From contig JADMII010000012.1 of the NCBI GenBank assembly GCA_015478665.1, forward strand, positions 13,202 to 77,201: a stretch of DNA of 64,000 bases. The letters run 5' to 3'. Below the pieces are notes generated by a model that worked only from the letters and a program-made list of their open reading frames with translations, was not told where the DNA came from and made no database searches. The stretch comes from Dehalococcoidia bacterium (GTDB taxonomy: Bacteria; Chloroflexota; Dehalococcoidia; DSTF01; JACRBR01). A program made the position numbers and the translations under genes. Positions 8,054-37,573 of this stretch are shown one piece after another. Within the stretch, counting starts at the first letter, position 1. Each line of letters starts with the position of its first letter.

Positions 8054-9543
8054 TCAGTCCGGCGTGAAGACGTTCGTCTCGACGGCGCCCGCCGATCGCA
8101 CGTGGCCGTGCGCGCCGACGACCTCGGCCGCCGTCATCGCCTCGAGCAACGGACGCTCGGCCGGCGTATTGGCGATGAAGCGCCGGCCGTCGCGCAGGCG
8201 GCCGATGATGATCCCGCGCTCGGGCGCGCCATCGCGGTCGAAGAGCACCGTGTACGTTTCGACGGTAGCGTCGCCGTCCGGCGCCGCGGCGAACGATGGG
8301 TGCGGCTCGGCATCGACGGCGGCCTGGTCGACGGCCGGGTCCGCGCGTACGAACGGCCGGTCCGGCCGTCGCGTCGAGTAGACGCCGAAGGAGTGCTTCG
8401 TGACGTACCAGCCGTTGCCTGAGACGACGCCGATGTCGTCGCGGGCGTCGCGCAGCCTGCGCACCATCGCGGCGATGCTGTGGGTGACGTAGTCGTTCCC
8501 GGGGCCGCCGAAGTACGGCAGTCCGCCGGTGACCGTGAGCACGCGCGGATCATCCTGCGCGATGCCGAGCGCGTCGCGGCCGATCTGGACGGCCGACGGA
8601 AAGCAGCTGTAGAGGTCGATCTGCCCGACGTCATCGATGGTGATGCCGGCGCTCTCCAACGCCCGCCTGCCGGCGGCGCGGATCGCCGGTGAGCTGTGGT
8701 AGTCGACGCGCTCGGTGATGAACCAGTGATCCGTCGCCTCGCCGCAGCCCCAGAGGTAGACCCAGCGGTCTTCGGGCACGCCCAGCCGGCGGGCGGCGGC
8801 GACGCTCATCAGCAGCAGCGCCGCGCCCTGGTCGACGTCCATGATCGCGTTCATGTACTTCGGGTAGGGGAAGCCGATGTAGCGGTTGGTGGCATCGACC
8901 GTCGTGATCTCGTCGGCGGTTTTCGCTTCCGGGAACCAGGCGTACGGGTTCGCCGCGGCGACAGCCGAAAATGAAGCGCAGAGCTCGCCGAGCGCCGCGC
9001 GATGTTCATCGAGCGTGCGGCCGTAGTGCGCGCGCAGCGCGTTCTCGAACAGCGGGTAGATGTGCGTCGGGATCGAGGCGCCGTGCGCGCGTTCGATGTC
9101 GTTCGTGCCGTTGCGCGCGTCGCCCGCCTGCGGCACGGGCGTCCCGCGCGGCGACCAGCCGAGGTCGAGCGGCTGCTTCCGGGCGCGACGCAGCGAATAC
9201 ATGCAGTCGGCGCCGGCGATCAGCGTGATCTCAGAGCCGCCGAGCGCGATCTGCTCCCCCGCCTCGTTCACCTGCCACTGCGGCGTGTTCCCCCCGACGT
9301 GAGTGTAGACGGTGGTGCGCGGGGCCACGGCGAGCGCGCGCGAGAGGTCGGCCGGAGGATCCTTCGACGGCCAGGAGAGCACGTTGATCACACGCAACGC
9401 GTCGACGCTCTGCAGCAGCTCGGCGACGCCGGCGTCGGCCTCGGCCGCGCGCGATGCTTCGGCCATCAGCGCCAGCGGCTCGCGCGGGCGCTCGGCGCCC
9501 GGTCGCTGCGTCACCTGCCCGACGCCGACGATGATCGGCTGCC
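8054..9543 (-). CDS. Thiolase-like (SCP-x type) protein fused to a C-terminal DUF35/OB-fold domain
   Basis: QPIIVGVGQVTQR N-terminus, thiolase-like core (LYSCFP, GGLPYFGGPGN) and a C-terminal OB-fold-like tail. The track ORF start at 9793 is spurious because it reads through the tRNA-Glu on the other strand. A GTG at 9543 is proposed as the start. Confidence 0.5.
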
Positions 9544-9715
9544 TCTCGTCCACGTGGATATTGTGCCCGTCGTCCGGCCTTCGACCAAGCAGCGCGGCGC
9601 TGCGAAACGCGCGCAGGCATCGGCGCGGCCGCTGGCTGCCTGGCGGTGCACAGCACGACCGCCGGCCGTCGAGGCGGCCGTCGGCCCGCCAGACAGCCGG
9701 TATACTGCGCGGCGG

Positions 9716-9792
9716 GGCGCCATCGTCTAGAGGCCCAGGACGCCGCCCTTTCAAGGCGGAGATCGCGGGTTCGAATCCCGCTGGCGCTACCA
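9716..9792 (+). tRNA. tRNA-Glu (anticodon TTC), with encoded CCA
   Basis: GGCGCCATCGTCTAGAGGCCCAGGACGCCGCCCTTTCAAGGCGGAGATCGCGGGTTCGAATCCCGCTGGCGCTACCA. The acceptor stem GGCGCCA/TGGCGCT pairs. D-loop GTCTAGAGG, anticodon loop CTTTCAA, T-loop GGTTCGAATCC. Confidence 0.9.
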
Positions 9793-9921
9793 ACTCACCA
9801 GCTCGCGGCGGGAGTGCGATCGCCGTCTGCGCCCGGCGCTGCTGCCCTGGTTCAACTTCGCCGTGCGATCAGGAGACGACGCAGGCGAACCCGCGGGCAG
9901 CGCTGCCGGTACACTGCGCCG

Positions 9922-15511: not shown

Positions 15512-15781
15512 ATGACAGCCACCGAACGACCGGTCCTCGAAGCGACCTTGACGGAGCGGCTGCTGCCGGCCCACGACCCCGCACACGGCACGCCCGACCC
15601 CATGCTGCTGCGGACGCTGCGGCTGCGCATCGCGGGCGCGGAGGCGCGCTTCGAGCAGACGGACTACGGCCATCCCGGGCGCTTCAACGCCTGGGTGCCG
15701 CGCGGCATCGACGGCAGCCTGCAGGCGCGCGCGGCGGAGCTCCAGCGCGCGTGCGATGCTCTCTCCCGGTTGCTGCTCTGA
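15512..15781 (+). CDS. Hypothetical small protein
   Basis: ORF only; no motif. Confidence 0.15.
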   Translation: MTATERPVLEATLTERLLPAHDPAHGTPDPMLLRTLRLRIAGAEARFEQTDYGHPGRFNAWVPRGIDGSLQARAAELQRACDALSRLLL

Positions 15782-15955
15782 GCATCGAGACTGCCATCCG
15801 CGTCCGACATCCGCTGGCGCCGTCATCCCCTGTCGACGCAGTGACGAGCGCCGGCGGAGGCCAGCTGTAGTTCCCACGAGGTGGTGGGCACAAAGAGCGT
15901 GCCCGAGTCGGTGGCGCGGCCCCTACCCCGGCGACGAACGGCAACGCGGTGCCGT

Positions 15956-16047
15956 CAACAAGCCCCCAGCGCGAGTGGGCGGACGCTTGATGCTTCCCGT
16001 GGGCATAAGACAGCGAATCACAAGCCCCCGGCGCGAGTGGGCGGATG
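15956..16047. repeat. Two imperfect ~29-nt direct repeats (ACAAGCCCCCrGCGCGAGTGGGCGGAyG) spaced 63 nt apart
   Basis: Seen at 15956-15985 and 16019-16047. Only two copies, lying in the 440-bp gap between hypothetical ORF 15512..15781 and the large GT-C gene. Confidence 0.5.
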
Positions 16048-16223: not shown

Positions 16224-19200
16224 TTACGGCTGCAGGTCGCTCGCGGCGGCCGGAATGCTGACCGTCAGCCGGTAGACGCGCGCGCTCGTCGGGTCGACGA
16301 CGTACACCGCGCCGTCCCGCCCGACCGCTATGCCTGTCGGGTGCACGCCGGTGACGCCACCGCGGAACTGGTAGGCCCCGCGCTGCTTGCCGCTCCGGTC
16401 ATAGACGAGGACACGCTGGTTCAACGGGTCGGTCACGAGCAGCAGCTTGCCGCTGATCGCGAGGTGCGGCACCTGCACGCCCGCGCCGCCGGCGCCGGCC
16501 GTCTTGCGCGACGTGGCGCCATCGGCGCTGATCACCAACTGGCGCTTCTCGAAGTCGTCCATGTACAGCGTGCCGTCGGCGGCGATGGCGATGTCGGACG
16601 GCTGCACCGCCTTCACGTCGATGCCGGCGGTCGAGATCGGCAGCGTCTCGACGCCGCCGCCGGCCAGCGGAACGCGATAGACCGTGCCGCCGCTGGGCGA
16701 TGTGACGTAGGCGGAATCGCCGGCGACGCTCACACCCGACGCTGAGGCGAAGGCGCCATCGAACCGGCGCAGCACCTCGCCGGCTGTGCTGAGCACGAAC
16801 AGCGACCGCGAGCCGGCATCGAGCACGACGATGCGACCGTCAGCCGTCGTGTCGATGTCAGCGATCCGGCTTGCCGGCGTCTTGAGTTTGCGCACGCCAC
16901 CTGCCCGTGGGATGAGGAAGAGCGTGTCCCGCGCGCCCGTCACGATGGTCCCGTCCGTCAGCACGGCTATGCCGGCGGCTCCATCGGCTCCATCGACGAG
17001 CAAGCCGCCACCGGCCCACGTCGGGTCCGGCGCGAGGCTGACGAGCGCGGGCTGGACGTAGGCGGCGGCCGGCTCGAACTCGCTGCCGTCGGCGAGGCGC
17101 CAGGGACCACCGGGCGGCTGCAGGTAGAGCGCCCATGGCGCCGGCGACGCGTTCGCGTACTGGATGGAGACGACGTGCGGACCTCGCGCGAGCTCGACGC
17201 CGCCTTCGACGCGCCGCGGTGAGTGGCCGCCGCCGTTGTCTACGACCAGCGCATCATCGACGAACAGCTGCGCCGACGAGCCGCCATCGAGCGCGAAGCC
17301 GTAGGTGCCCGCGGCCGGCGCCGTGTAGGTGCCGCGATATTCGGCGCTCGCCGTGCCCGCTGGCAACGCGCCGACGGCGTACGGCACCCGCGCGATCTGT
17401 ACCGGCGGCGTGCTGAAATCGGAGCTCGAGCGGAAGAGCGCCTGGAAGCCGCGCGTCCCGGCGCTCGTCGCGTAGAGGCTGTCGGCGGCATCGGTCACCA
17501 CGCCGTCGATGTCGACCTGCGCCGACATCGCGCCGGCGGTCGCAGCGCCGGCGATGAGCCGGACGCGATGTTCGCCGAACGTGAGCGCCTGCGGGGGCGA
17601 CACGACTCGCCCGCTGCCCTCGATCACGCGCCTGCCGTCGATCTCGATCGCGACGGGCCCGGGCGACGCGAGCGTGATCCTCGTGTCGCCGGGGAACGAG
17701 GGCACCCAGAGGTACCCATCCCAGACGCCCGTCGCCACGCCGCCGGCGCGCAGATCGCCGGCTGACCACGCCCGCGCCGGCAGCGCCCGCGACGTCGATT
17801 GAGGCGCCGCCGCGATGTCGCTGCTGCCGTAGAGCGCGAACGGCAGCGCACGCGCCGCGTCGAGGTCCGACGCCGGAATCGTGATGCTGGTGAAGTACGT
17901 GCGACCGTAGGGGTCGACGTCATCACGGCGCTGCAGCCCCGGGTAGAGGCGCGCCAGCGTCGGGATGATGCCGAAGTCGCGCTGGTCGATGATCAGGAAC
18001 GCATCGCGCCTGCTGCGTGGAAGGACGATCTGCGTCGTCGGCGTGTAGACGCGCGTCGCCTTGCCGCGCGCCAGCACGCGGAACGCCGGCTGGGCGGCGA
18101 ACTCCGCCGTCACGTAGACATCGTCTTGTGCTGCCTGCCTGGCGGCGAGTTGTCCGACGTCCGTGAACACCGGGATGAAGGCGTCGTACACGGCCTGCGA
18201 CTCCGCCTGTCTGCCGAACAGCTGCTGGAAGTTGATGGCGGCGCTGCTGCCGACGAGCGCGACGGCGCCGACGGCGAAGAGCGCCGCGCCGGCGCGCGTC
18301 GGCGTCAGCGTGCGGTAGAGGAATGCCACGGCGAGCCCGACGAGGAGGTAGCCCGGCGGGATGGCACCCACCGTGCGGATGGCGCTGGGATTCTCAATGC
18401 TGATCGTGAGGACGCCGGGCACGAGCGAGAGCACGAACCAGACGGCCATCGACCCCCTCCGCCAGTTGCGCAGCGACCAGACGGCGACGGCCAGGCCGAG
18501 GACGAAGAGGGCGCCCGTGATCTCGTCGAGCATCGGCGCCTTGGGGAGGTTGTGGCGCCCGTTCCCATCGCCGCGCACGTTCATCATCTCGGCCGCCGCG
18601 CGGATGTTCGAGCGCAGCGGCTCGTACGTATCCTTCCGGTCGATCTCCCTGAAGACGCTGACGTCCCGCGTGCGCGCCAGGAACTTGTCCTGGTGGAGAT
18701 ACGCGAACTGCCCGAGCGGCGCGATGACGATGAGGAAGGCGACGCCATAGACGACGATCCCCGGGATGTTCCGGAGCACGAGGCGCCGCTCCGTGACGAG
18801 CACGTACGCCAGCATGAGCGCCATCACGATCGGCACCACCCGGAACGACGGGTACGAGTAGATGCCGGCGGCAAGTGAGCCGCCGGCAAGCGCGAAGAAC
18901 AGCTTCCGTCCCGTCTCCATGCCGCGGACGAAGAAGTAGACGGCAAGCACCGAGAACAGCGGCACCAGCGAGGCGTCCCAGGAGATCCGACTGAACGTCG
19001 TCGCGAAGCGCGAGACGGCGAGGAGCGCGGTCGCCACAAGCGCCGGCACGGGCCCGAGCAGCCAGCGCGCGAGGAAGTAGAACGCCACGACCGTGGCGAT
19101 CCCGGCGAGCGCCGGCACGATGCGGAAGGCGAAGACGGTGTACCCGAACGTCTTGAACGACAGCACCAACAGATAGGGGTACAGCGACGCGCGCCCGAAA

Positions 19201-19724
19201 TTCGAGTCGCGCCACACCGTGAGGTGGTCCTTGTCGATGATCGACAGTGCGTCGGCGCCGATCACGCCCTCGTCGTACCACAGCCCCGGCGGGAAGTGGC
19301 TGAACCGGAAGAAGCGGAAGAAGAGCGCGACGCCGACGACGCCGGCGAGCAGCACCAGCTCCCAGCGCAGCGAGAGCGCGGGCGGCGCCGCGCGTGAGGG
19401 CGCCGTCGGCGTCGCTTGCGCCTGCGATGCCGGATGCGCGAGCGCGAACGCCGCCGCCGCGAACAGCACAACTGCCGGGACGAAGCCCCAGGCGGGGTGC
19501 GGCGCCGGCGAGCCGACGGTGATCCCGAACTGGGCCGCGAGCGCGACGAGCACGCCGAGCACCGCCAGGATCGGCGCCGCCTGCTGCCGCGCGATGCGCC
19601 GTGCCCGGCCGGGGCCAGTGCCGCCGCCCGCTGTCGTCGCTGTGATGGACGTCCCGACGGACGACGCCGTGAGCGTGGAGCTGCTCGCGGCGTCCGTCGT
19701 GGCGTCTTCGATGCCGGGATCCAT
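16224..19724 (-). CDS. Polytopic GT-C-fold glycosyltransferase-like protein (PMT/ArnT-like) with extracytoplasmic PA14 and NHL-repeat domains
   Basis: The ATG at 19724 follows GGAG. The N-terminus is Ser/Thr-rich, followed by about 12 TM helices with a first-loop GLWYDEG (the DE motif of PMT_2/ArnT-type GT-C enzymes). A PA14-like segment (GTYGFALDGGSSAQLFVDDALVVDNGGGH) and C-terminal NHL-type repeats (VYVVDPTSARVYRL) follow. The track ORF extension to 21401 is an out-of-frame shadow over the ABC gene. Confidence 0.65.
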   Translation of the reverse strand: MDPGIEDATTDAASSSTLTASSVGTSITATTAGGGTGPGRARRIARQQAAPILAVLGVLVALAAQFGITVGSPAPHPAWGFVPAVVLFAAAAFALAHPASQAQATPTAPSRAAPPALSLRWELVLLAGVVGVALFFRFFRFSHFPPGLWYDEGVIGADALSIIDKDHLTVWRDSNFGRASLYPYLLVLSFKTFGYTVFAFRIVPALAGIATVVAFYFLARWLLGPVPALVATALLAVSRFATTFSRISWDASLVPLFSVLAVYFFVRGMETGRKLFFALAGGSLAAGIYSYPSFRVVPIVMALMLAYVLVTERRLVLRNIPGIVVYGVAFLIVIAPLGQFAYLHQDKFLARTRDVSVFREIDRKDTYEPLRSNIRAAAEMMNVRGDGNGRHNLPKAPMLDEITGALFVLGLAVAVWSLRNWRRGSMAVWFVLSLVPGVLTISIENPSAIRTVGAIPPGYLLVGLAVAFLYRTLTPTRAGAALFAVGAVALVGSSAAINFQQLFGRQAESQAVYDAFIPVFTDVGQLAARQAAQDDVYVTAEFAAQPAFRVLARGKATRVYTPTTQIVLPRSRRDAFLIIDQRDFGIIPTLARLYPGLQRRDDVDPYGRTYFTSITIPASDLDAARALPFALYGSSDIAAAPQSTSRALPARAWSAGDLRAGGVATGVWDGYLWVPSFPGDTRITLASPGPVAIEIDGRRVIEGSGRVVSPPQALTFGEHRVRLIAGAATAGAMSAQVDIDGVVTDAADSLYATSAGTRGFQALFRSSSDFSTPPVQIARVPYAVGALPAGTASAEYRGTYTAPAAGTYGFALDGGSSAQLFVDDALVVDNGGGHSPRRVEGGVELARGPHVVSIQYANASPAPWALYLQPPGGPWRLADGSEFEPAAAYVQPALVSLAPDPTWAGGGLLVDGADGAAGIAVLTDGTIVTGARDTLFLIPRAGGVRKLKTPASRIADIDTTADGRIVVLDAGSRSLFVLSTAGEVLRRFDGAFASASGVSVAGDSAYVTSPSGGTVYRVPLAGGGVETLPISTAGIDVKAVQPSDIAIAADGTLYMDDFEKRQLVISADGATSRKTAGAGGAGVQVPHLAISGKLLLVTDPLNQRVLVYDRSGKQRGAYQFRGGVTGVHPTGIAVGRDGAVYVVDPTSARVYRLTVSIPAAASDLQP

Positions 19725-19795
19725 GGCGCTCCGAACTGCGAATCTCGGGCAGAGTATACGGCAGGCGGACGCAGCCGCTGCGACCGCGGGTGCGA

Positions 19796-21622
19796 TCAGG
19801 CGCCGGACGCAGCCGCCGGCGGCACGCTCGTCTCCGCCGGCGTGTCGCGCTGCTGGAGGAGCCAGAGGCGGAAGTAGCGGCCGCGCCGCGCGAGCAGCTC
19901 GTCGTGGGTGCCCGTTTCGACGATCTCGCCGTGGTGCAGCACGATGATCCTGTCGGCGTCGCGGATCGTCGCCAGCCGGTGGGCGATGATGATGCTCGTG
20001 CGCCGCGCGGTCAGCCGCTCGAGGCTCTCCTGGATCAGCGCCTCCGTCTCGGAGTCGATGCTGGCAGTCGCCTCGTCGAGCACGAGCATGACTTCCGGGT
20101 CGAAGGCGACCGAGCGCGCGAAGGCGAGCAGTTGCTTCTGGCCGGTGCTGAGGTTGGCGCCGCGCTCGACGAGCTGGTGCTGGTAGGTGTGCGGCAGCTC
20201 GTTGATGAAGCGATCGGCGCCGACGAGGCGGGCGGCGTCGCGCACCCGCTCCATCGGGATCGACTCGTCGCGCAGGCGGATGTTCTCTTCGATCGTGCCG
20301 GTGAAGATGAAGGGGTCCTGAAGCACGAGGCCGATGTGCTTGCGCACCTGGTGCTGGCGGGCATGCGCGATGTCGATGCCATCGAGCAGGATGCGGCCGT
20401 GCTGCACGTCGTAGAAGCGCAGCAGCAGGTTGATCATGCTCGACTTGCCGGCGCCCGTCGCGCCGACGAAGGCGATGCGCTCGCCGGGCTCGATGCGGAA
20501 GCTCACGTCCTTCAGCACCCAGGTGTCCGGCACATAGGCGAACGACACGTGCTCGAACTCGACGGCGCCGGCGATCTTCTCCGGCAGGTCGACGGCGTCG
20601 GGTATATCCTGCACGCCCTCCGGCTCGTCCATCAGCGTGAAGATGCGCTCGAGGGCGGCCATCGCCTGCTGCAGGATGTTGAAGCGGTCGGCGATCTCGC
20701 GCACGGGGTTGTAGTACATCGCGACGAGCAGGATGAAGGCATAGAGGCGGCCAATGGTCAGCTGGTCGTTGAGCACGAAGCGGCCGCCGACGACGATGAT
20801 GATGCCGGTGGTGATCGCGCTGACCATCGCGACAACCGGCTCGAAGAGCGCGAACTGGTGCACGACTTCCAGGTTGGCGTCGAGCAGGCGCCTGTTGTGG
20901 ACGGCGAACTCCTGCCGGTCGCGACGCTGGCGCCCGAAGAGCTGGACGAGCAGGATGCCGCCGATGTGCTCGGCGACGAAGCCGTTGAGCCGCGCGACGT
21001 GCAGCCGCTGCCTCCGGAACGCGTTTCGCATGGCGACGGCGAACCAGCGCATGAGCACCGCGAGCACCGGCACGATCGCCAGGGTGATCAGCGCAAGCTT
21101 CCAGTCGATCACGAGGAGGGCGATGGCGACGCCGACGATCATGAACAGGTCGGCGATGATCGTGATCGCGCCGGCCGTGAGCAAGGCATCGAGCGCGACG
21201 ATGTCGTTCGTCAGCCGCGTCACCAGGCGGCCGACGGGATTCGCGTCGTAGAAGGCGATCGACATCCGCTGCAGATGGCGGAACAGCTTGAGGCGGATGT
21301 CGTTCATCACCTTCTGCGAGACCAGCACCATCTGCACCGACTGGACGTAGCGGAGGACAAACATGAGCACGAGGATCGCCAGGTACGCCGTGACGATCCA
21401 CCAGAGATCCTTCGTCGTCCCTTTGGCGACGTCACGGTCGATCGCCTGCTGCACGAGCAGCGGCTGCGCGAGCTGGAGGGCGGTGGTGATCAGCAGCAGG
21501 CTGACGGCGAGGAACACGCGCAGCCGGTGGACGCGCATGTGCGACCAGAGCCGGCTCACCAGCCGCTGGTCGTACGCCTTGCCGATCGCATCGTCCTCTT
21601 CGTTGTAGCCGTGGATCGCCAT
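19796..21622 (-). CDS. ABC exporter, fused permease/ATPase half-transporter (MsbA/type I exporter-like), subunit B
   Basis: Six-TM exporter domain plus an NBD with Walker A GATGAGKSS, the signature LSTGQKQLLAFAR, and Walker B LVLDEATASID. The ATG at 21622 lies 2 nt after the stop of the upstream ABC gene. Confidence 0.8.
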   Translation of the reverse strand: MAIHGYNEEDDAIGKAYDQRLVSRLWSHMRVHRLRVFLAVSLLLITTALQLAQPLLVQQAIDRDVAKGTTKDLWWIVTAYLAILVLMFVLRYVQSVQMVLVSQKVMNDIRLKLFRHLQRMSIAFYDANPVGRLVTRLTNDIVALDALLTAGAITIIADLFMIVGVAIALLVIDWKLALITLAIVPVLAVLMRWFAVAMRNAFRRQRLHVARLNGFVAEHIGGILLVQLFGRQRRDRQEFAVHNRRLLDANLEVVHQFALFEPVVAMVSAITTGIIIVVGGRFVLNDQLTIGRLYAFILLVAMYYNPVREIADRFNILQQAMAALERIFTLMDEPEGVQDIPDAVDLPEKIAGAVEFEHVSFAYVPDTWVLKDVSFRIEPGERIAFVGATGAGKSSMINLLLRFYDVQHGRILLDGIDIAHARQHQVRKHIGLVLQDPFIFTGTIEENIRLRDESIPMERVRDAARLVGADRFINELPHTYQHQLVERGANLSTGQKQLLAFARSVAFDPEVMLVLDEATASIDSETEALIQESLERLTARRTSIIIAHRLATIRDADRIIVLHHGEIVETGTHDELLARRGRYFRLWLLQQRDTPAETSVPPAAASGA

Positions 21623-21624
21623 CG

Positions 21625-23385
21625 CTACCTCAGTGCCTCGATGTTGTGGGCGTCGTCGTCGACGAGCTCCTGTTCGAGCCGCTGGCGGCGCGCGAGCCGC
21701 GCGTAGGCGCCGTCGCGCGCGACGAGCTCGTCGTGCGTGCCGCGCTCGACGATGCGCCCGTCCTCGAGCACGATGATCTGGTCCGCCCACTTCACCGCCG
21801 AGACGCGGTGCGCGATGACGACGGCCGTGCGGCCGGCGATGAACTCGCGCACGCCGGAGAGAATGCGCTCTTCGGTGTAGGCGTCGACGTGCGACAGGGC
21901 ATCATCGAGCACGAGCACGGGCGCCGTGCGGGCGAGCGCGCGGGCGATCGAGGCGCGCTGCTTCTGGCCGCCGGAGAGCGAGACGCCGCGTTCGCCGACG
22001 AGCGTGTGTATGCCCTGTGGCATCTGCGGCAGGTCGTTCGACAGCTGGGCGAGTTGCACCGCCTGGTCGAGGTGCTGAAGGTCCACGTCGCCGCCCCAGG
22101 TCACGTTCTCTTCGAGCGTCGCGGAGAAGAGGAACGACTCCTGCGGCACGAAGGCGATCGCCCGGTGCAGTTGCGCGAGCGGGATGTCGCGCACGTCGTG
22201 GCCGTCGATCGCCACGCGGCCCGAGCGCACGTCATAGACGCGCGCGATCAGGTTCACCAGCGTCGTCTTGCCCGAGCCCGTCGGGCCGACGATCGCCAGC
22301 GTCGATCCGGCGGGCACGTCGATCGAGATATCGTGCAGGACGGGGCGGCTGAAGTAGCCGAAGTTCACGCGGTCGAAGGTGATGCTGCCGCGCAGCGCCT
22401 CCACCTCGCGCACGCCGGGCGCATCGACAACGACCGGCTTTCGGGCGAGCACTTCCTCGACGCGCGCCATCGATGCGGCGGCCTGCTGGTACATGTTCAG
22501 CGTCCAGCCGAGGTTGATCATCGGCACGGACAACAGCACGACGTAGCTGTTGAACTGCACGAACTGCCCGAGTGTGATGGCGCCCGTCGCTACCTCGCGC
22601 GCGCCCATCCAGAGGACGATGACCGTGCTGAGGCCGATGAGCACGGCGAGCATCGGCCAGAGCGCCATCGACAGACGCGCCCAAGCGACGTTCATGCGCT
22701 CGAACGCGACGGCCTGCTTCTCGAAGGCGGCCGCCTCGTTCTCCTCCTGGACGTAAGCCTTGACGACCCGCGCGCCGGAGAAGTTCTCTTGGACGAAGGT
22801 CGTCAAGCTGCCGAACTGCGTCTGAACCGCGTGGTAGCGCTTCTCGACCACCTGACCCACCCAGACGAAGATCAGCGTGATCAGCGGCAGCGGCAGCGCG
22901 GCGATGAGTCCGAGCTTCCAGTCGATGACGAGCATGAAGGCGAGGCCGTAGATGAACAGCAGGATCGACCGGACGAGGTCCATCAGGCCCGGGCCGAGGA
23001 TCTCGCGGACGGTCGTGACGTCGTTGGAGACGCGGGCCATGAGGTCGCCCGTCTGGCTGTCCTGGAAAAACTTCTGGTCGAGGGACTGGATGTGCGCATA
23101 CACATCGTCCCGGAGGTCGTACTCAATACGACGGGAGGAGCCGCTGACGTAGTGGCGGGTGACGAAGCGGAGGGCGCTATCGGCCGTCTGGATGGCAACC
23201 GTGAGCGCGGCGAAGAGGACCAGCTCGCGGACGGGCTTGCCCTGCCGCAGGGAGTCGACGGCGAGGCCGAGGATGTAGGGCGCGGTGATGCTGGCGCCCG
23301 CCGCCAGGGCGAGCGCAAGAAGGCCGATGGTCATCCTCAGCCGGTAGCGGAGGACGTACGGGAACAGGCGCGAGACGAAGACCAC
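21625..23385 (-). CDS. ABC exporter, fused permease/ATPase half-transporter, subunit A
   Basis: Walker A GPTGSGKTT, signature LSGGQKQRASIARAL, Walker B LVLDDALSHVD. Confidence 0.8.
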   Translation of the reverse strand: MVFVSRLFPYVLRYRLRMTIGLLALALAAGASITAPYILGLAVDSLRQGKPVRELVLFAALTVAIQTADSALRFVTRHYVSGSSRRIEYDLRDDVYAHIQSLDQKFFQDSQTGDLMARVSNDVTTVREILGPGLMDLVRSILLFIYGLAFMLVIDWKLGLIAALPLPLITLIFVWVGQVVEKRYHAVQTQFGSLTTFVQENFSGARVVKAYVQEENEAAAFEKQAVAFERMNVAWARLSMALWPMLAVLIGLSTVIVLWMGAREVATGAITLGQFVQFNSYVVLLSVPMINLGWTLNMYQQAAASMARVEEVLARKPVVVDAPGVREVEALRGSITFDRVNFGYFSRPVLHDISIDVPAGSTLAIVGPTGSGKTTLVNLIARVYDVRSGRVAIDGHDVRDIPLAQLHRAIAFVPQESFLFSATLEENVTWGGDVDLQHLDQAVQLAQLSNDLPQMPQGIHTLVGERGVSLSGGQKQRASIARALARTAPVLVLDDALSHVDAYTEERILSGVREFIAGRTAVVIAHRVSAVKWADQIIVLEDGRIVERGTHDELVARDGAYARLARRQRLEQELVDDDAHNIEALR

Positions 23386-27603: not shown

Positions 27604-28521
27604 TTGTCGGCCGAGCCGGTCTCGCGCTACTACATGTCGCAGCGACTCAAGCTGCATTACGTGGTCTGGGGCGATGAGGCGAACCCGCCGCTGCTCCTCA
27701 TCCACGGCAACCGCGACCACGCCCGCACCTGGGACGACGTCGCCGTGCAGCTGCAGCGCGACTACTGCGTCTACGCCGTCGACCTGCGCGGCCACGGCGA
27801 CAGCGCCTGGGCGATCGGCGGCCAGTACAGCCTGCCGGAGTTCGTGTTGGATGTCGCCGGGCTCGTGAAGGAGCTCGACCGCAGCCCGCTCACGGTGATC
27901 GGCCACTCGCTCGGCGGCGCCGTCGCGCTGGAGTACGCCGGCGTCTTCCCGGAGACGGTGCTCAAGGTCGTGGCGATCGAGGGCCTCGGCCCGCGCGTCG
28001 CCGAGCCGACGCCGGCATCGGTGCGCATGCGACGCTGGATCAGCGAGACGCAGGCCTTCGACAAGCGCAACCCGCGCCGCTACCCGTCGATCGCCGATGC
28101 CGAGAAGCGCATGCGCGAGGAGAACCCGCACCTGAAGGACGCGATGGCGCGCCACCTGACCATCCACGGATCCCGGGAGAACGACGACGGCAGCCGCAGC
28201 TGGAAGTTCGACAACTACGTCCGGCTGCACTCGCCCTACGAGTTCAACATCGCCGAGGCGCGCGAGATCTGGAACCAGATCCGCTGCCCCGTCTTGCTGA
28301 TCCGCGGCTCCGAGAGCTGGGCTTCGGACCCGGAGGCCGATGGCAAGGCGTCGTCGTTCCACACCTACCGGACGGTGCTGGTGAAGGACGCCGGCCACTG
28401 GGTGCACCACGACCAGCTGCGCGCGTTCATGGACGTCGTCTGGCAGTTCCTCGGCGAAGACTACGAGCCGGCGACGGGCGACGCGAGCAGCGCCAGCGCA
28501 CTCCCGAGCGCCTCGGCGTAG
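27604..28521 (+). CDS. Alpha/beta-fold hydrolase
   Basis: LLLIHGNRDHARTWD and the nucleophile elbow VIGHSLGGAVA. A TTG start follows GAGAAGGAGCAGG; an ATG at 27631 is an alternative. Confidence 0.7.
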   Translation: MSAEPVSRYYMSQRLKLHYVVWGDEANPPLLLIHGNRDHARTWDDVAVQLQRDYCVYAVDLRGHGDSAWAIGGQYSLPEFVLDVAGLVKELDRSPLTVIGHSLGGAVALEYAGVFPETVLKVVAIEGLGPRVAEPTPASVRMRRWISETQAFDKRNPRRYPSIADAEKRMREENPHLKDAMARHLTIHGSRENDDGSRSWKFDNYVRLHSPYEFNIAEAREIWNQIRCPVLLIRGSESWASDPEADGKASSFHTYRTVLVKDAGHWVHHDQLRAFMDVVWQFLGEDYEPATGDASSASALPSASA

Positions 28522-29570
28522 ATCGCCGGGTCGGCGTAGTCATCGAGCGCCATCGCGATGACCGATGCGTCGTCGCCGGGCAGGCTGGCGACCGTGCGGC
28601 GGGCCGGCGCGTCGTCCCACTGCTCGCGCACGTGCATGTGCGCGCTCTCGGCGTGCACCTCGACGCCCAGCGTCGCCTCGGACGTGCGGATGCGCACCTC
28701 GCGCAGCGGCGCGGCGCCGGCATCATCGTCGCGCGCGACCGTGAGCGTGACGCCGCGCGTGCGGTCGTAGAGCGTCGCCTCGATGCGCTCGGCACTGGTA
28801 TTGAGGTCGGCGAGCGACAGCCCCAGCCGCGACACCAGCCAGCCGGCGAGGAGCAGCGCCTCGCTGCTGAGCGAGCCGCCGCCGCTGGCGATCTCGATCG
28901 ACTGGATCTGCGATAGCTGCTTCACCCCCTCGCCATCGAAGAACTGCGCGATCAGCGCGCGCCACGAGGCGAGCCGCCCCCACGCCAGGTCCGAGAGCGC
29001 CAGCTCCCACCGCTGGCCGGCGCGCAGGACACGGTCGAACGTCCCGACGCCGTCGGCCTGGCCCGCGCTGTCGAAGATCAGGCGGTCGGCCGTGTCGATG
29101 AGCTCGCCGCTCATGCGGCCGCCGAGCTCCGGCCGGTCCATCAGCCAGACGACGACCGGCAGCTCCGGCACGAGCAGCCCCAGCACGGCTGATGCAACCT
29201 CCTGCTGCTCCCCGGCGCCCCCGAAGAGGCGCACCTCCTCGGCGCAGATGTGCGCGGCGCCGGCCGCCGGCCGCCAGCACAGGACGGCGATCGCTGCCCG
29301 GAGCGTCTCCTGCTCTGGACCGGCGAGCGCGAGAATGGCGCGGCACGGATGACGCTGTGGCAACAGGCGGACAACGCGCTCGAAGCGCTCGATGTCCGCG
29401 CGCTCGTGGGCGAAGGCGACGAAGTTCAGCACGCGCAGGCGGATCGATGACGCATCCTCGCCACCGGACGTGTCGCGCCAGATGCGCCGGAACTCCGCCT
29501 CGATGGCGGGCGGGTCCACGGCGATCTCGTGGTCTTCGAGTCGCTCGATGCCGGCTACATCCGGTGCCAT
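28461..29570 (-). CDS. opcA: Glucose-6-phosphate dehydrogenase assembly protein OpcA
   Basis: OpcA-like sequence throughout, positioned directly after zwf. The ATG at 29570 overlaps the zwf stop by 16 nt. Confidence 0.65.
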   Translation of the reverse strand: MAPDVAGIERLEDHEIAVDPPAIEAEFRRIWRDTSGGEDASSIRLRVLNFVAFAHERADIERFERVVRLLPQRHPCRAILALAGPEQETLRAAIAVLCWRPAAGAAHICAEEVRLFGGAGEQQEVASAVLGLLVPELPVVVWLMDRPELGGRMSGELIDTADRLIFDSAGQADGVGTFDRVLRAGQRWELALSDLAWGRLASWRALIAQFFDGEGVKQLSQIQSIEIASGGGSLSSEALLLAGWLVSRLGLSLADLNTSAERIEATLYDRTRGVTLTVARDDDAGAAPLREVRIRTSEATLGVEVHAESAHMHVREQWDDAPARRTVASLPGDDASVIAMALDDYADPAIYAEALGSALALLASPVAGS

Positions 29571-31087
29571 TCGCGTCCGTCCTGTTCGACGAGCCGCCGC
29601 GCTTCGTCGGGGCCCCACGTGCCGGCGTCATAGAAGCGAAGCGGCGACGCGCCCTGCAGCCACGCGTCGAGCACCGGCGTCAGCAGCTCCCACGACGCCT
29701 CGACGCTGTCCCAGCGCGTGAACAGCGTCGAGTCGCCGAGCATCGCATCGAGCAGCAGGCGCTCGTACGCTTCCGGCGGCTCCACCCCGAACGACGAGCC
29801 GTAGCGGAAGTCCATGTTCACCGGACGGACGTCGGAGCGCGTGCCCGGCACCTTCGCGCCGAAGCGCAGCGAGATGCCCTCGTCCGGCTGGATGCGCAGG
29901 ACGAGCAAGTTCGCCGCCGGGTCGATGTTGTCGCCGCCCATCTCGCGGAACAGCTGAAGCGGCGGCTTCTTGAACGTGATCACCACTTCCGTCGCCCGCT
30001 TCGGCAGCCGCTTGCCGACGCGCAGATAGAACGGTACATCGGCCCAACGCCAGTTCTCGATCATCAGCTTCAGCGCAACGTACGTCTCGATCTCGGACGC
30101 AGGCGAGACGCCGTCCTCCTCGCGGTACCCGGGCACCTGCTGGCCGAGGATCGCGCCGGCCCGGTACTGCGCGCGCACCGTCGCCCGCCCGACGTCGCCG
30201 ACCGGCAGCATGGCGCGGAACACCTTCGCCTTCTCGTCGCGGACGCCGTCGCCGTGCAGCGACGCGACCGGTTCCATCGCCACGAGCGCCAGCACCTGCA
30301 TCAGGTGGTTCTGCACCATGTCGCGCAACGCGCCCGACTCCTCGTAGTAGCCGCCACGCCCCTCGACGCCTACGGTCTCCGCGACAGACACCTGGACGTC
30401 GTTGACGTAGCGCCGGTTCCAGATCGGCTCGAAGATGCCGTTGCCGAAGCGGAAGACGAGGATGTTCTGCACCGTCTCCTTCCCCAGGTAGTGGTCGATG
30501 CGGTAGATCTGGCGCTCGCGGAAGACGAGGCCCAGGCTCTGGTCCAGCTTCTTCGCGGACTCGAGGTCGCGGCCGAACGGCTTCTCCACAACGAGCCGCG
30601 CCCAGCCGCCGCTCGGGCTGCGCGAGAGGTTCGCCTCGCCGAGGTGGTGGGCGATCTCGGCGTAGGCGGTCGGCGGCGTGGCGAGGTAGAAGAGGCGGTT
30701 GCCGCCGGCGCCATGCGCGCTGTCTTCCTTCTTCAGCCGTTCGCCGAGTCGCTCGTAGCCGGGCATGTCGCCGAAGTCCGAGCTGACGTAGTGCAGCGAG
30801 CGCGCGAAGCTCTCCCAGATGTCGTCCTGCAGCGGCTCGCGCGAGAACTTCGCGACGGCGTCCTTCATCGCCGCACGAAACTGCTCGTCGCTCCAGCCGC
30901 GCCGGGCGAAGCCGACGACGGAGAAGCCGCCCGGCAGCAGCCGCTCGCGCGCGAGATTGTAGAGCGCCGGCACGAGCTTGCGCGCCGTGAGATCGCCCGT
31001 CGCACCGAAGACGACGAGCGCGCAGGCGTCTGGCGTGCGCGGAAGGCGCAGGCCGGCGCGCAGGGGGTTGAGGGTCGAGGTGGTCAC
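29555..31087 (-). CDS. zwf: Glucose-6-phosphate 1-dehydrogenase
   Basis: LVVFGATGDLTARKLVPALYNL and RIDHYLGKE are present. The GTG at 31087 overlaps the gnd TGA stop (GTGA). Confidence 0.85.
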   Translation of the reverse strand: MTTSTLNPLRAGLRLPRTPDACALVVFGATGDLTARKLVPALYNLARERLLPGGFSVVGFARRGWSDEQFRAAMKDAVAKFSREPLQDDIWESFARSLHYVSSDFGDMPGYERLGERLKKEDSAHGAGGNRLFYLATPPTAYAEIAHHLGEANLSRSPSGGWARLVVEKPFGRDLESAKKLDQSLGLVFRERQIYRIDHYLGKETVQNILVFRFGNGIFEPIWNRRYVNDVQVSVAETVGVEGRGGYYEESGALRDMVQNHLMQVLALVAMEPVASLHGDGVRDEKAKVFRAMLPVGDVGRATVRAQYRAGAILGQQVPGYREEDGVSPASEIETYVALKLMIENWRWADVPFYLRVGKRLPKRATEVVITFKKPPLQLFREMGGDNIDPAANLLVLRIQPDEGISLRFGAKVPGTRSDVRPVNMDFRYGSSFGVEPPEAYERLLLDAMLGDSTLFTRWDSVEASWELLTPVLDAWLQGASPLRFYDAGTWGPDEARRLVEQDGREWHRM

Positions 31088-32001
31088 GTCCGCTCCGCGT
31101 CCGCGGCCTTCACGGCATGCCCGCCGAACTCGTTGCGCAGCGCCGCCTGCACCTTCGCGCTGAACGACGCATCCTGGCGCGACGAGAAGCGCCGCATCAG
31201 CGAGAGCGTGATGATCGGCAGCGGCACATCCTGGTCGAGCGCCTCCTGGACGGTCCAGCGCCCCTCGCCGGAATCCTCCACGAAGCCGGCGATCGTTTCC
31301 AGCCGCGGGTCGCGCTCGAACGCGCGCTCCGCCAGATCGAGCAGCCACGACCGCACGACGGAGCCGTGACGCCAGACGTCGGCCACCTGATGCAGGTCGA
31401 TGGCGAAGTTCGACCCGGCGAGCAGCTCGAAGCCCTCGCCGTAGGCGGCCATCATCCCGTACTCGACACCGTTGTGCACCATCTTGACGAAGTGCCCGGC
31501 GCCACTGCGCCCGACGTGCGCGTAGCCATCCGGCGGCGCCAGCGTCTTCAGCACCGGCTCGACGAAGCCGACCGCGTCGTCCGAGCCGCCGACCATCAGG
31601 CAGTAGCCTTCCTTCAGCCCCCAGATGCCGCCGCTGGTGCCGGAGTCGACGTACTCGATGCCCTGCCCGGCGACGAGCGACGCGCGGCGCGTCGAGTCGT
31701 GGTAGTTCGAGTTGCCGCCGTCGATGAGCACGTCGCCCTTCGTCAGCAGCGGCAGCAGCTGCGCGATCGTCGAATCGACGGGGTCGCCGGCCGGCACCAT
31801 CATCCAGACGGCGCGCCGCGGCTGCAGCTCGTCGACGAGCGCGCCGAGCGACGCCGCGCCCGTCGCCCCTTCGGCCACCGACGCCGCGACCGCATCGGCG
31901 CTGAGGTCCGAGACGACGACGCGGTGGCCCCCGCGTAGCAGCCGCAGGGTCATGTTGGCGCCCATGCGCCCGAGCCCGATCATGCCGATGTCCATCGTCA
32001 T
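31084..32001 (-). CDS. gnd: 6-phosphogluconate dehydrogenase, short (~300 aa, decarboxylating) form
   Basis: IGMIGLGRMGANMTLRLLRGGH NAD(P)-binding start and 6PGDH-like body. The ATG overlaps the pgi stop (ATGA). Confidence 0.8.
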   Translation of the reverse strand: MTMDIGMIGLGRMGANMTLRLLRGGHRVVVSDLSADAVAASVAEGATGAASLGALVDELQPRRAVWMMVPAGDPVDSTIAQLLPLLTKGDVLIDGGNSNYHDSTRRASLVAGQGIEYVDSGTSGGIWGLKEGYCLMVGGSDDAVGFVEPVLKTLAPPDGYAHVGRSGAGHFVKMVHNGVEYGMMAAYGEGFELLAGSNFAIDLHQVADVWRHGSVVRSWLLDLAERAFERDPRLETIAGFVEDSGEGRWTVQEALDQDVPLPIITLSLMRRFSSRQDASFSAKVQAALRNEFGGHAVKAADAERT

Positions 32002-33692
32002 CCTCCCCGCACGCCGGCGCCTGCGACCGCGGACGCGACGGCGCGCCGCAGCATCGCGAGGCCGGCGTGCATATCGGCGCCGAGATGCACGCGGAGCGCC
32101 GGCCGACCGTGGTCGTGCAGCGCCTGCAGGTCGCCGATGGCCTGCGCGCGCTTCAGCTGGCCGAAGGTGTACGTCTGACCGGGGATGGCGATGTCATGAA
32201 GGTCGCTGGAGGTGACCTGCAGGAAGACGCCCTTCGCCGGGCCGCCCTTGTGCAGCTGCCCCGTCGAATGCAGGAAGCGCGGCCCGTATCCCAGCGTCGT
32301 CGCAACGCGCCACGTATCACGCACGTCGCGACGAACCGCTTCGAACGCGTCGTGCGCCGCCGCGTCCGCCTCGACGTAGGCCGTGATGGCGAAATAATCT
32401 CCGGGCGCGAGTTGCCTCAGCAGCTCCGCGATACTGCCCTCGACGTCCAGATCGACTGCTCCGGCGCCGGCGCGGACGGCGACCGGCGCGTCGCCCAGGC
32501 CGGCGACGTCGAGCGTCTGCGTCCGCGCCAAATCGGCGAGGACGCGCCTCGTGTTGTCCTTCGACTCCTGCACGTTCGGCTCGTCGAACGGGTTGATCTC
32601 CAGCACCCGTCCGGCGACGGCGACGGCGAACTCCCAGCGGAAGAACTCCCGCCCAAGATCGTACGGGTCATCGAGGTCGACCGTGATCACCGGCTGCCCC
32701 TCACCGAAGAGGGCGCCGGCGATCGCGTCGAGCTCCGCGTTGTCGCCGCCTTCCAGCCGCATCCGCACGAACGCGCGGTCGTCGGCGTAGTGCCGCGGCG
32801 ACGCGAGCGGCTCGCCCGCTACCGGTACGATGCCGGTGCCAAGCTTGCCGGTGCTCTCGGCGATCAGCTGTTCGACCCAGAGCCCGAACGCGGCGATCGC
32901 CGGCGTCGCGATGAAGGTGCACTTGTCGCGGCCGCCGCGCGCGAGCTCCCCCAGGGCGGCTCCGAGGCGCAGCGCGTCGCTGCCCGCGAAGCGTCCGGCA
33001 TCGGCCGCGCGCTTCGCCGAGTCGAGCAGCCGGGCGACGTCGACGCCAGTGGCGGCGGCGGGCGCCAGACCGAAGTACGAGAGCGCGGAGTAGCGGCCGC
33101 CGATGTCGCCCGGGTTGGTGAAGACGCGGCGGAACCGGTGCTCGCGCGCAAGGTCCTGCAAGGGCGTGCCGGCGTCGGTGATGGCGACGAAGTTGTCGCC
33201 CGCTGCGTCGCCCTTCGCCTCGGCGACGAGAGCCTGGAAGTACGCGAAGAGGGACAACGGCTCGAGCGTGGTGCCGGACTTCGACGAGACGAAGAACAGC
33301 GTCCGCGCCGGATTGATCTTCCGCGTGACGCCGAGGATCGTCGCCGGATCGGTCGTATCGAGCACATACAGCAGCGGCCAGCCGCTGCGATGCGGGATGC
33401 TCTGGCGCAGGACTTCCGGCGCGAGCGAGCTGCCGCCCATCCCCACCAGCACGCAGGCGTCGAACTGCCCGCGCACGTCTTCGCCGAACGCGCGCAACTC
33501 AGCGACCTGGTCGCGCATCCGCGACGCGACATCGAGCCAGCCGAGGCGGTTGGCGACCGACGCCTGGCGCGCCGCGTCGTCGCCCCAGAACGCCGGGGAA
33601 CGGGACCATAGCGCGGCCGGCGCGCCGGCGGCAGTCAGCTGCTCGATGCGCCGCTCGACGCCGCCCGCGTGTTCGCCGAGCTCGAACTTCAT
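31998..33692 (-). CDS. pgi: Glucose-6-phosphate isomerase
   Basis: PGI motifs are present (VLVGMGGSSLAPEV, FVSSKSGTTLE). The ATG at 33692 overlaps the tal stop (ATGA). The 5' portion of the track ORF is a shadow. Confidence 0.8.
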   Translation of the reverse strand: MKFELGEHAGGVERRIEQLTAAGAPAALWSRSPAFWGDDAARQASVANRLGWLDVASRMRDQVAELRAFGEDVRGQFDACVLVGMGGSSLAPEVLRQSIPHRSGWPLLYVLDTTDPATILGVTRKINPARTLFFVSSKSGTTLEPLSLFAYFQALVAEAKGDAAGDNFVAITDAGTPLQDLAREHRFRRVFTNPGDIGGRYSALSYFGLAPAAATGVDVARLLDSAKRAADAGRFAGSDALRLGAALGELARGGRDKCTFIATPAIAAFGLWVEQLIAESTGKLGTGIVPVAGEPLASPRHYADDRAFVRMRLEGGDNAELDAIAGALFGEGQPVITVDLDDPYDLGREFFRWEFAVAVAGRVLEINPFDEPNVQESKDNTRRVLADLARTQTLDVAGLGDAPVAVRAGAGAVDLDVEGSIAELLRQLAPGDYFAITAYVEADAAAHDAFEAVRRDVRDTWRVATTLGYGPRFLHSTGQLHKGGPAKGVFLQVTSSDLHDIAIPGQTYTFGQLKRAQAIGDLQALHDHGRPALRVHLGADMHAGLAMLRRAVASAVAGAGVRGG

Positions 33693-34832
33693 GCGGCGCT
33701 TGCCTGCCGGATCTTCTCCGCCTTCGCCGCCGTCGTCGCCGTGATCTGATCGAACGACTTCGAGAATGCCTCGACGCCATCGCGCTGCAGCTCGTCGGTG
33801 ATTTCCGTGAGCGAGATGCCCTCGGCCTCGAGGTCGGCGAGCACCTGGAGCGCACCGTCGTAGTCCGCATCGATCGTGCGGCGGACGACGCCGTGGTCGC
33901 GGAAGGCATCGATGGTCTGCGGCGGCATCGTGTTCACCGTGTCCGGGCCGATCAGCTCCTCGATGTACTTGACGTCGCTGTAGGCCGGGTTCTTCGTGCC
34001 GGTGCTGGCCCAGAGCGGCCGTTGGATGCGGGCGCCGGCGGACTGCAGCTTGCGGAAGCGCTCGCCGGCGAAGACCTCGCGGAAGCGGCGATAGGCAACC
34101 TTCGCGTTGGCGACGGCAACCGTGCCGCGCAGGCCTTCGAGCTTCGCCCGCTGCTGCGCGTCGCTGGCTGCGGCCAGCTTCGCCTCGATGCGTTTGTCGG
34201 CGCTCGTATCGACGCGGCTGACGAAGAAGCTGGCGACGGAGTTGAGACCCGCGATGTCCTCCCGCGCCTCGGCGCGCCGCTCGAGGCCGCGCAGGTACGC
34301 CTCCATCACGCGCTCGTAGTACTCGACGGCGAAGAGCAGCGTAATGTTGATGTTCACGCCAGCGGCGATGCACTCCTCGATCGCCGGGATGCCGGCGTCC
34401 GTCGCCGGGATCTTGACCATCAAGTTCGGCCGGTCGATCGCCTTCCACCAGCGCTTCGCTTCGTCGACCGTCGGCTGCGTCTCGAACGCCTTCTCCGGCG
34501 ACACCTCGATGCTGACGAAGCCGTCGCTGCGCGCCTGATCGAAGACCGGGCGCAGGATGTCGCAGGCGTGCCGAATGTCGGTGATCGCGAGCTGCTCGAA
34601 GAGATCGCGTGGCGGCACGCCCGTGCGCACGAGCTCGGCGATCTGCACGTCGTAGTCGTCGCCGGCCTCGATTGCCTTCTCGAAGATCGTCGGATTCGCC
34701 GTGACGCCGCGGATGCCGTCGTCCGCGACGTAGCGCGCCAGGCCGCCGTCCTCGATCATGTTGCGGCGGATGAAGTCGAGCCACGGCGACTGCTGCTGCT
34801 GCGCGAAGAGTTCCACCATCGGATTAGCCATT
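33689..34832 (-). CDS. tal: Transaldolase
   Basis: [16 protein letters not shown]...[12 protein letters not shown]. The ATG at 34832 follows AGAAGGAGAATATCA, and the rpiB stop lies inside codons 2-3. Confidence 0.85.
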
Positions 34833-35297
34833 GATATTCTCCTTCTCTCCGGTGTAGCGCGACTCGATCGCCAGCACCTTGTTGAGACGCCGCACGTGCC
34901 GTTCTTCGCCGGAGAACCGGGCGCCAACGAACGCGCCCACCAGCTCGATCGCCAGCGCCGGCCCGATCACGCGCGCGCCGAGCGTCAGGATGTTCATATC
35001 GTCGTGCTCGACGCCCTGGTGCGCCGAATACGTGTCGTGGCAGACGGCCGCGCGCACGGCCCGGATCTTGTTTGCCGCCACCGACGCGCCGACGCCGCTG
35101 CCGCAGATCAGCACGCCGCGCTCGCAGCCCCCGCCGCGCACGGCCTCGCCGGCGGCCTGTGCATAGTCCGGGTAGTCGACCGGCGCCTCGCTGTCCGTGC
35201 CGAGGTCGACGACATCGTGCCCGAGGCGCCGCAGCTCGTCGATGATCGGCTGTTTCAGCGGGAAGCCGGCGTGATCCGCGGCGACAGCGATGCGCAT
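34824..35297 (-). CDS. rpiB: Ribose-5-phosphate isomerase B
   Basis: [12 protein letters not shown]...[16 protein letters not shown]. The ATG overlaps the tkt TGA by 1 nt. Confidence 0.85.
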
Positions 35298-37327: not shown

Positions 37328-37485
37328 GGTCGGCCCTTTCTTGCAGGCGCGATGATCTCGTCGACAAGGGGAAGAGGCGCTTGGGTGCAGCGTGATGGCG
37401 GAGGGGGCGCGGGCGCCGCATGGCGGGCTCGCCGGGTGCGGTCGACAGGCATCATGCCTCTTTCCGGTTGCGCGAGTTCCATCCC

Positions 37486-37496
37486 CAGTATAGCGC
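37486..37496 (-). promoter_or_regulatory. Candidate -10 element (TATACT) about 160 nt upstream of tkt
   Basis: The reverse strand reads GCGCTATACTGGGG. No strong -35. Position relative to the start of the seven-gene operon is appropriate. Confidence 0.2.
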
Positions 37497-37573
37497 GGGT
37501 AGGCCGAATCGCTGGCGCCGCGCGGAGGGCGACGAGGCTGCTCCCGGAACCGCGCCGGCGGTGGGCCGGGCGC

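Follow-up and report, generated by a model that had tools for sequence, protein, structure and literature searches.

Gene layout and the ABC transporter pair

We analysed a 64,000-nucleotide (nt) stretch of DNA from a Dehalococcoidia bacterium of the phylum Chloroflexota (contig JADMII010000012.1, positions 13,202 to 77,201 of the forward strand), referred to here as the window, which has a G+C content of around 70%. Between positions 16224 and 23385 it carries three open reading frames (ORFs), all co-oriented on the minus strand: two genes for ATP-binding cassette (ABC) half-transporters, ABC-A and ABC-B, and a gene for a large membrane protein that resembles glycosyltransferases of the C fold (GT-C). 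A first-pass annotation, made by a model from the sequence alone, had located the same three ORFs correctly and had read them as a dedicated exporter coupled to a glycosyltransferase in one glycoconjugate pathway.

ABC-A (23385–21625, minus strand; 586 residues) and ABC-B (21622–19796, minus strand; 608 residues) each join a transmembrane domain (TMD) to a nucleotide-binding domain (NBD), and the two genes are separated by exactly 2 nt, as had been annotated, with the TAG stop codon of ABC-A at 21625–21627 and the ATG of ABC-B at 21622. ABC-B ends in a TGA at 19796–19798, and the GT-C gene (19724–16224, minus strand, stop codon included; 1,166 residues) begins with an ATG at 19724, so that the intergenic gap (19725–19795, minus strand) measures 71 nt and not the 72 nt given before. 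This gap contains a GGAG 6 nt upstream of the ATG and a −10-like hexamer, TATACT, at 19753–19758. A promoter and terminator scan of the gap made no call; its consensus is of the Escherichia coli type and is uninformative for Chloroflexota.

Both half-transporters match the Pfam models ABC_membrane (E = 1.6e-44 for ABC-A and 3.7e-51 for ABC-B) and ABC_tran (E = 8.3e-31 and 1.6e-27, respectively). The best Protein Data Bank (PDB) match of ABC-B is TmrA (5mkk_A, E = 3.5e-150), and the closest bacterial half-transporter to ABC-A is its partner TmrB (5mkk_B, E = 1.1e-121), although full-length eukaryotic ABCB transporters outscore TmrB. ABC-A has the Walker A motif GPTGSGKT and a canonical LSGGQ signature, but in its Walker B motif (VLVLDD) an Asp replaces the catalytic Glu; ABC-B keeps the catalytic Glu (MLVLDE) and has a deviant signature, LSTGQ. 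Two adjacent TMD–NBD genes are thus found, with the catalytic Glu lost from one NBD and the signature altered in the other. Such complementary deviations of Walker B and signature motifs define the class of heterodimeric exporters in which one ATP site is degenerate, such as TmrAB, TM287/288 and BmrCD. Judged by its sequence, the pair is a heterodimeric exporter of the TmrAB/TM287-288 type, one ATP site being consensus and the other degenerate, and the earlier call of a heterodimer holds on the grounds of its best bacterial matches, its motifs and its 2-nt junction. No NCBIfam equivalog model reaches its cut-off for either protein. The models of the flippases PglK (173 and 170 bits, cut-off 1000) and MsbA (TIGR02203; 431 and 390 bits, cut-off 602) both fall short.

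The GT-C protein, its ectodomain and its family

The 1,166-residue protein is 100% identical, with the same start, to the NCBI entry 'MAG: glycosyltransferase family 39 protein [Dehalococcoidia bacterium]'. Three Pfam models score above their cut-offs: PMT_2 (PF13231) at residues 181–336 (51.5 bits, cut-off 26.1), PA14 (PF07691) at residues 788–873 (42.2 bits, cut-off 24; E = 9e-11) and, as a borderline match, NHL at residues 1128–1144 (21.2 bits, cut-off 20). With 32 homologues as input, AlphaFold produced a confident model (mean predicted local distance difference test (pLDDT) score 88.4, predicted TM-score 0.81), in which a disordered N terminus (residues 1–37; pLDDT < 50) precedes the membrane helices, an alpha/beta domain and beta-rich domains that extend to residue 1160; taken with the profile matches below, the domain order is GT-C module, alpha/beta domain, PA14, PA14 and NHL. 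About 13 transmembrane helices are present, two of which (helices 39–70 and 77–96, seen in both models; together residues 39–96, positions 19437–19610, minus strand) are extra helices that precede the GT-C transmembrane catalytic module (residues 119–506; 18207–19370, minus strand).

Compared with PDB sequences as a single query, the membrane half gave no meaningful match (best E = 0.3), which made a fold comparison necessary. The fold matches of the modelled membrane module include the GT-C structures PglB, AftA, ALG9, AftB, AftD, DPY19, PIG-U, ALG6, PimE and EmbA. Because of these structural matches we assign the module, as modelled, to the GT-C fold, with no single functional class clearly closest. 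The module is polytopic and has acidic residues in the first external loop (EL1) after its own first helix: the motif GLWYDEG (residues 147–153; 19266–19286, minus strand) includes Asp151-Glu152 (19269–19274), the putative catalytic acidic pair, which the model places at the start of helix 150–164, after the transmembrane helix at residues 119–138. The first-pass annotation had recognized this Asp-Glu motif and called the protein GT-C-like, a call borne out by the PMT_2 score, the modelled fold and the conservation described below; it had placed the motif in the protein's first extracytoplasmic loop, whereas two extra helices come before the loop that holds it. In alignments of 32 and 43 sequences, reaching down to 23–24% identity, P145, G147, D151 and E152 are invariant. 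The same holds for R137, R246, R295, R351 and R450, and for M380, G385, D386, N392, P394 and P397 in a conserved outer loop. Around 20 residues beyond the acidic pair, located in the membrane module or in its outer loops and including the loop HNLPxAPMLD, are invariant. This conservation of D151/E152 together with the other residues argues for a conserved active site.

The best NCBIfam match of the protein, TIGR03663 (Agl23-like), covers residues 129–317 only and scores 42.2 bits (E = 5e-11) against a cut-off of 126.25, so membership in that family was rejected; we regard the protein as belonging to a PMT_2/Agl23-like lineage. The PMT family model PF02366 does not match the 1,166-residue protein, the STT3 match is sub-threshold, and a few distant homologues have a precomputed PF02366 match. 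No MIR domain was found at E values up to 0.1, and the model has no beta-rich insertion inside the membrane module. The GT39/PMT assignment implied by the name in NCBI was therefore not adopted, since its PF02366 and MIR hallmarks are missing, and a filing under ArnT was likewise set aside, as the models and domains that define it are not matched.

After the last transmembrane helix comes an extracytoplasmic alpha/beta domain (residues 510–632; 17829–18197, minus strand), modelled with pLDDT > 90 and containing an invariant Y594. It is followed by two PA14 domains (residues approximately 650–745 and 755–875; 17490–17777 and 17100–17462, minus strand), where one had been annotated, and by a six-bladed NHL beta-propeller (residues approximately 885–1160; 16245–17072, minus strand). 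The first PA14 domain emerges from a sub-alignment profile of segment 636–752, which matches 6qdi (E = 2.8e-11) and RsgI3 (6qe7, E = 1.2e-9), both biomass sensors with tandem PA14 domains, as well as anthrax protective antigen (E = 7e-4), and from Pfam PA14 matches to this segment in 8 of 20 family members. The second PA14 domain contains the Pfam match in the protein itself; over positions 718–880 the family profile matches PA14 proteins with E values of 1e-11 to 1e-26, among them anthrax protective antigen (E = 1e-11) and, at positions 739–874, RsgI3 (E = 9e-27). The same profile matches the NHL propellers of TRIM2, TRIM3, TRIM71, Pizza and PknD at positions 886–1139 (E = 1e-22 to 1e-37), and Foldseek aligns the propeller to Pizza6 and TRIM NHL domains with target TM-scores of around 0.7–0.8 (0.78–0.82 for Pizza6 alone). 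Its strand pattern, modelled at a pLDDT of around 90 across residues 883–1156, forms a closed six-bladed propeller. Profile matches to solved structures, the confident model and Foldseek thus dispel the suspicion, raised when the domains were annotated, that PA14 and NHL were low-complexity artefacts. In two relatives (loci L016 and L018), the catalytic half is 66–68% identical to the window protein and the ectodomain 43–45%, a faster divergence that fits an exposed, specificity-determining module. The GT-C gene of these two loci was recovered in at least two tblastn pieces, which may reflect a frameshift or a fault in the assembly.

The architecture recurs widely. It was found in 115 protein clusters and, in a scan of one genome per species, at 392 genome loci; the best 80 of the 392 are all from Chloroflexota, as is every identified member, and most members come from uncultured lineages of soil, sediment and wastewater. 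In Anaerolineae and Caldilineales (L020–L080; for example, L025, L039, L049 and L070), genes encoding PMT_2–PA14 proteins, with or without NHL, stand in tandem arrays of two or three paralogs, often preceded by genes for TIGR03662/DUF2298 membrane proteins and for TIGR03663 (Agl23-like) proteins with C-terminal NHL propellers. Together these genes form a large island of GT-C-like genes, laid out as one would expect for the assembly of envelope glycans. The literature that we searched contains no description of the PMT_2, PA14 and NHL combination, in agreement with the first-pass remark that the combination was not recognized as a described one; the proteins are nevertheless common in databases, with more than 100 clusters and automatic annotation in NCBI and at the Joint Genome Institute (JGI), and make up an uncharacterized family.

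By analogy with characterized GT-C enzymes, the protein would take a polyprenyl-phosphate-linked sugar donor at the outer face of the membrane, through the Asp-Glu loop, and would pass the sugar to an acceptor outside the cytoplasm, which the C-terminal ectodomain (the alpha/beta domain, the PA14 pair and the NHL propeller) would hold in place. The ectodomain would then work in the manner of the carbohydrate-binding modules (CBMs) of mycobacterial Emb and AftD. Pairs of PA14 domains bind polysaccharide in RsgI sensors, and because of this we favour, as candidate acceptor, a glycan of the cell wall or surface or else a glycoprotein.

A different acceptor would follow if the protein were a protein O-glycosyltransferase similar to PMT or TMTC, whose NHL and PA14 domains recognize secreted or S-layer proteins and not polysaccharide. 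The PMT_2 match and the invariant Asp-Glu dipeptide agree with such an enzyme, and NHL propellers in solved structures mostly bind protein or RNA. TMTC is itself a PMT-clan GT-C module with an appended recognition domain (PMC7801869), and the MIR domain of PMTs and the TPR domain of TMTCs offer parallel roles. However, the window protein has neither the PF02366 match nor the MIR domain; tandem PA14 domains are the polysaccharide-sensing unit of RsgI sensors, which are the best PDB matches here; and the paralog arrays of Anaerolineae bear a closer likeness to islands that build polymers, embCAB for example. We consider this alternative rather unlikely, although it is the strongest competitor to a glycan-binding role.

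Gene order around the ABC pair and the GT-C gene

The first-pass annotation had joined the three genes into a single pathway, in which the ABC heterodimer would flip a lipid-linked sugar or oligosaccharide and the GT-C protein would transfer it to an acceptor bound by PA14 and NHL. We examined gene order from both sides. GT-C-anchored loci comprised a close clade, defined as Dehalococcoidia loci with a GT-C identity of at least 45% (17 informative loci), and 61 distant loci from Anaerolineae, Caldilineales and others (GT-C identity 26–32%). An ABC-anchored set was obtained by searching metagenome contigs with ABC-B, and gave 17 informative loci with orthologous pairs at 72–86% identity.

The ABC pair is adjacent in none of the 61 distant GT-C loci. 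Throughout the close clade, a peptide importer encoded on the upstream side and the FtsK and RNase J genes on the downstream side are conserved to the same degree as the ABC pair, so the adjacency carries little functional signal. At one close-clade locus (L013) the ABC pair is missing and GT-C, FtsK and RNase J are present; at another (L015) FtsK is missing and the GT-C gene still has the ABC pair; at two more (L003 and L017) both flanks are missing. The two junctions thus erode at comparable rates, the pattern that neutral synteny would produce. From the side of the transporter, the GT-C gene lies downstream in 6 of the 17 ABC-anchored loci and is absent from 11, of which 4 run directly into FtsK/RNase J, 2 run directly into a conserved small ORF, and 5 carry other genes downstream. 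In the window, this small ORF (15512–15782, plus strand; 89 residues, no Pfam match) flanks FtsK, lying after it; in locus L082 (2461–2805) a product of 60% identity is encoded 45 nt past the ABC pair, and no GT-C gene intervenes. Conservation within the same loci is also unequal, at 72–86% identity for the ABC proteins versus 46–64% for the GT-C proteins. A conserved ABC–ABC–GT-C trio is thus seen neither across the GT-C family nor across the orthologues of the ABC pair.

Other occupants of the slot after the ABC pair were noted. In L095 (7913–10756, plus strand) and L096 (7840–10761, plus strand), it holds a co-oriented protein of 947–973 residues with an N-terminal membrane helix, for which a Pfam search in L095 found no match. 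In L084 (6765–7557, minus strand), two small ORFs (136 and 130 residues) lie between the ABC pair and FtsK, in the position of the GT-C gene, and by eye resemble a candidate HEPN/nucleotidyltransferase toxin–antitoxin pair.

Gene content points the same way as gene order. Characterized extracytoplasmic glycosylation systems cluster a donor synthase and a small flippase of the SMR or MATE type with the GT-C gene (PMC11127046). Pfam scans of the credible ORFs of the window detected no polyprenyl-phosphate sugar synthase (GT2), GtrA, SMR or MATE protein; outside the locus, the window holds housekeeping genes, including a pentose-phosphate operon, FtsK, RNase J, FtsH and RF-2. A Gtr-like three-component system was rejected, as the window has neither a synthase nor a small flippase gene.

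On this evidence, we favour the view that the locus probably consists of two functionally separate neighbours: a TmrAB-type exporter, and a GT-C membrane glycosyltransferase with a putative glycan-binding ectodomain. The two ABC genes belong to the conserved core of this Dehalococcoidia lineage and, taken alone, encode an ordinary exporter. Several observations weigh against separating the two. At 14 of the 17 close-clade GT-C loci, the ABC pair lies directly upstream on the same strand, with gaps of approximately 11–104 nt (from crude ORF calling), and a simple scan of the 71-nt gap in the window found no terminator-like hairpin. Given the short gaps and the missing hairpin, the ABC pair and the GT-C gene may be co-transcribed in the Dehalococcoidia clade, and may be functionally coupled to some extent. 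The assignments of donor and acceptor, moreover, are drawn by analogy, with the preference for a glycan taken from the roles of PA14 elsewhere, and catalysis by the GT-C protein is predicted.

The single pathway proposed at first pass draws on this shared strand and close spacing, including the 2-nt junction, and on the fact that type IV ABC exporters include flippases of lipids and lipid-linked oligosaccharides, such as MsbA and PglK (for PglK, PMC5395944). Known polyprenyl-phosphate monosaccharide flippases, however, are proposed to be of the SMR/GtrA or MATE type and not ABC transporters (PMC11127046), and the PglK and MsbA scores of the pair fall far under their cut-offs. Combined with a neighbourhood that is as syntenic as the trio itself, the absence of the pair from distant relatives, the 11 orthologous pairs that lack the GT-C gene, the uneven rates of divergence and the missing donor synthase, these points make a single pathway improbable. 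The notion of a dedicated exporter loses its support, and the adjacency, limited to one Dehalococcoidia clade, reflects lineage-level synteny and supplies no evidence for a shared pathway. Conservation of gene order with the ABC pair, whose absence the first-pass annotation had named as an argument against its proposal, largely fails in relatives.

A more speculative combination, which we hold to be less probable still, would have the PMT_2–PA14–PA14–NHL enzymes, with the TIGR03662 and Agl23-like NHL proteins encoded beside them in Anaerolineae, build or decorate an envelope glycopolymer or surface-layer glycan specific to Chloroflexota, with a TmrAB-type exporter recruited in the Dehalococcoidia clade as the polyprenyl-phosphate sugar flippase; donor flipping would then be a new job for a TmrAB-class ABC transporter. 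That the GT-C protein is an inactive transferase, serving as an envelope sensor, anchor or adhesin on a reused scaffold in the way of PIG-U in GPI transamidase, is highly improbable given that D151/E152 and the other invariant residues persist at 23–24% identity.

A second membrane protein of the window (45098–46678, plus strand; 526 residues) had also been annotated as GT-C-like. It has sub-threshold Pfam matches to PMT_2, PIG-U and GT87, which are listed among the members of the GT-C clan (PMC7801869), and a weak match to a putative glycosyltransferase family; no match exceeds its cut-off, and an Asp-Asn (PFIDNGYG) stands where the Asp-Glu pair would be. Its gene comes after genes for an alpha/beta hydrolase and a luciferase-like monooxygenase.

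Elsewhere in the window, the convergent intergenic region of approximately 790 bp between the FtsK gene and the GT-C gene contains a 25-nt direct repeat, CAAGCCCCCRGCGCGAGTGGGCGGA, at 15959–15983 and 16021–16045 (plus strand), 62 nt apart; the chance expectation for such a repeat is zero, and it has no Rfam match. The pentose-phosphate run (28461–37573, minus strand) is complete, with transketolase, transaldolase, phosphoglucose isomerase, 6-phosphogluconate dehydrogenase, glucose-6-phosphate dehydrogenase and OpcA. A 1,083-residue protein (57621–60872, minus strand) has a C-terminal VWA domain as its sole Pfam match. The only Rfam match in the window is a tRNA gene (9716–9789, plus strand); it overlaps the upstream end of an opposite-strand stop-to-stop ORF (8054–9868), and the start of that gene must therefore lie further in.

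Comparison with known systems

The ABC pair resembles TmrAB of Thermus thermophilus and TM287/288 in its adjacent half-transporter genes and its one degenerate ATP site. For the GT-C protein, the comparison is more layered. ArnT (GT83) and PMT/TMTC (GT39/GT105), of GT-C fold class A, share with it the PMT_2 match, an acidic pair at the start of EL1 and an extracytoplasmic domain after the last helix. The window protein differs from them in having no sequence match to any solved GT-C chain, no PF02366 match, no MIR domain, no arn operon and two extra N-terminal helices, and none of them has its 650-residue PA14–PA14–NHL ectodomain. With GtrA/GtrB/Gtr* and the pentofuranose systems (PMC11127046) it likely shares its chemistry, in which a GT-C enzyme uses a lipid-linked monosaccharide donor on the outer side of the membrane.

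TIGR03663 (Agl23-like) and TIGR03662 (Chlor_Arch_YYY/DUF2298) proteins of Chloroflexota and Archaea are linked to the family through gene order in Anaerolineae, where they adjoin the PMT_2–PA14–NHL genes and where the Agl23-like ones also carry NHL propellers; neither is encoded beside the GT-C gene in the window.

To our knowledge, how Chloroflexota construct their cell envelope is poorly understood, and a phylum-wide GT-C family with lectin-like and propeller modules of its own would offer a concrete handle on the assembly of surface glycans or glycoproteins in this phylum. It would also be another case of GT-C enzymes gaining acceptor specificity through added outer domains. The closest analogue for its mode of action is probably found in mycobacterial EmbA/B/C and AftD, in which a GT-C module is likewise joined to large extracytoplasmic carbohydrate-binding modules; the embCAB arrays of tandem paralogs resemble those of the family in Anaerolineae, whereas the accessory folds (CBMs compared with PA14 and NHL), the phylum and the envelope differ.

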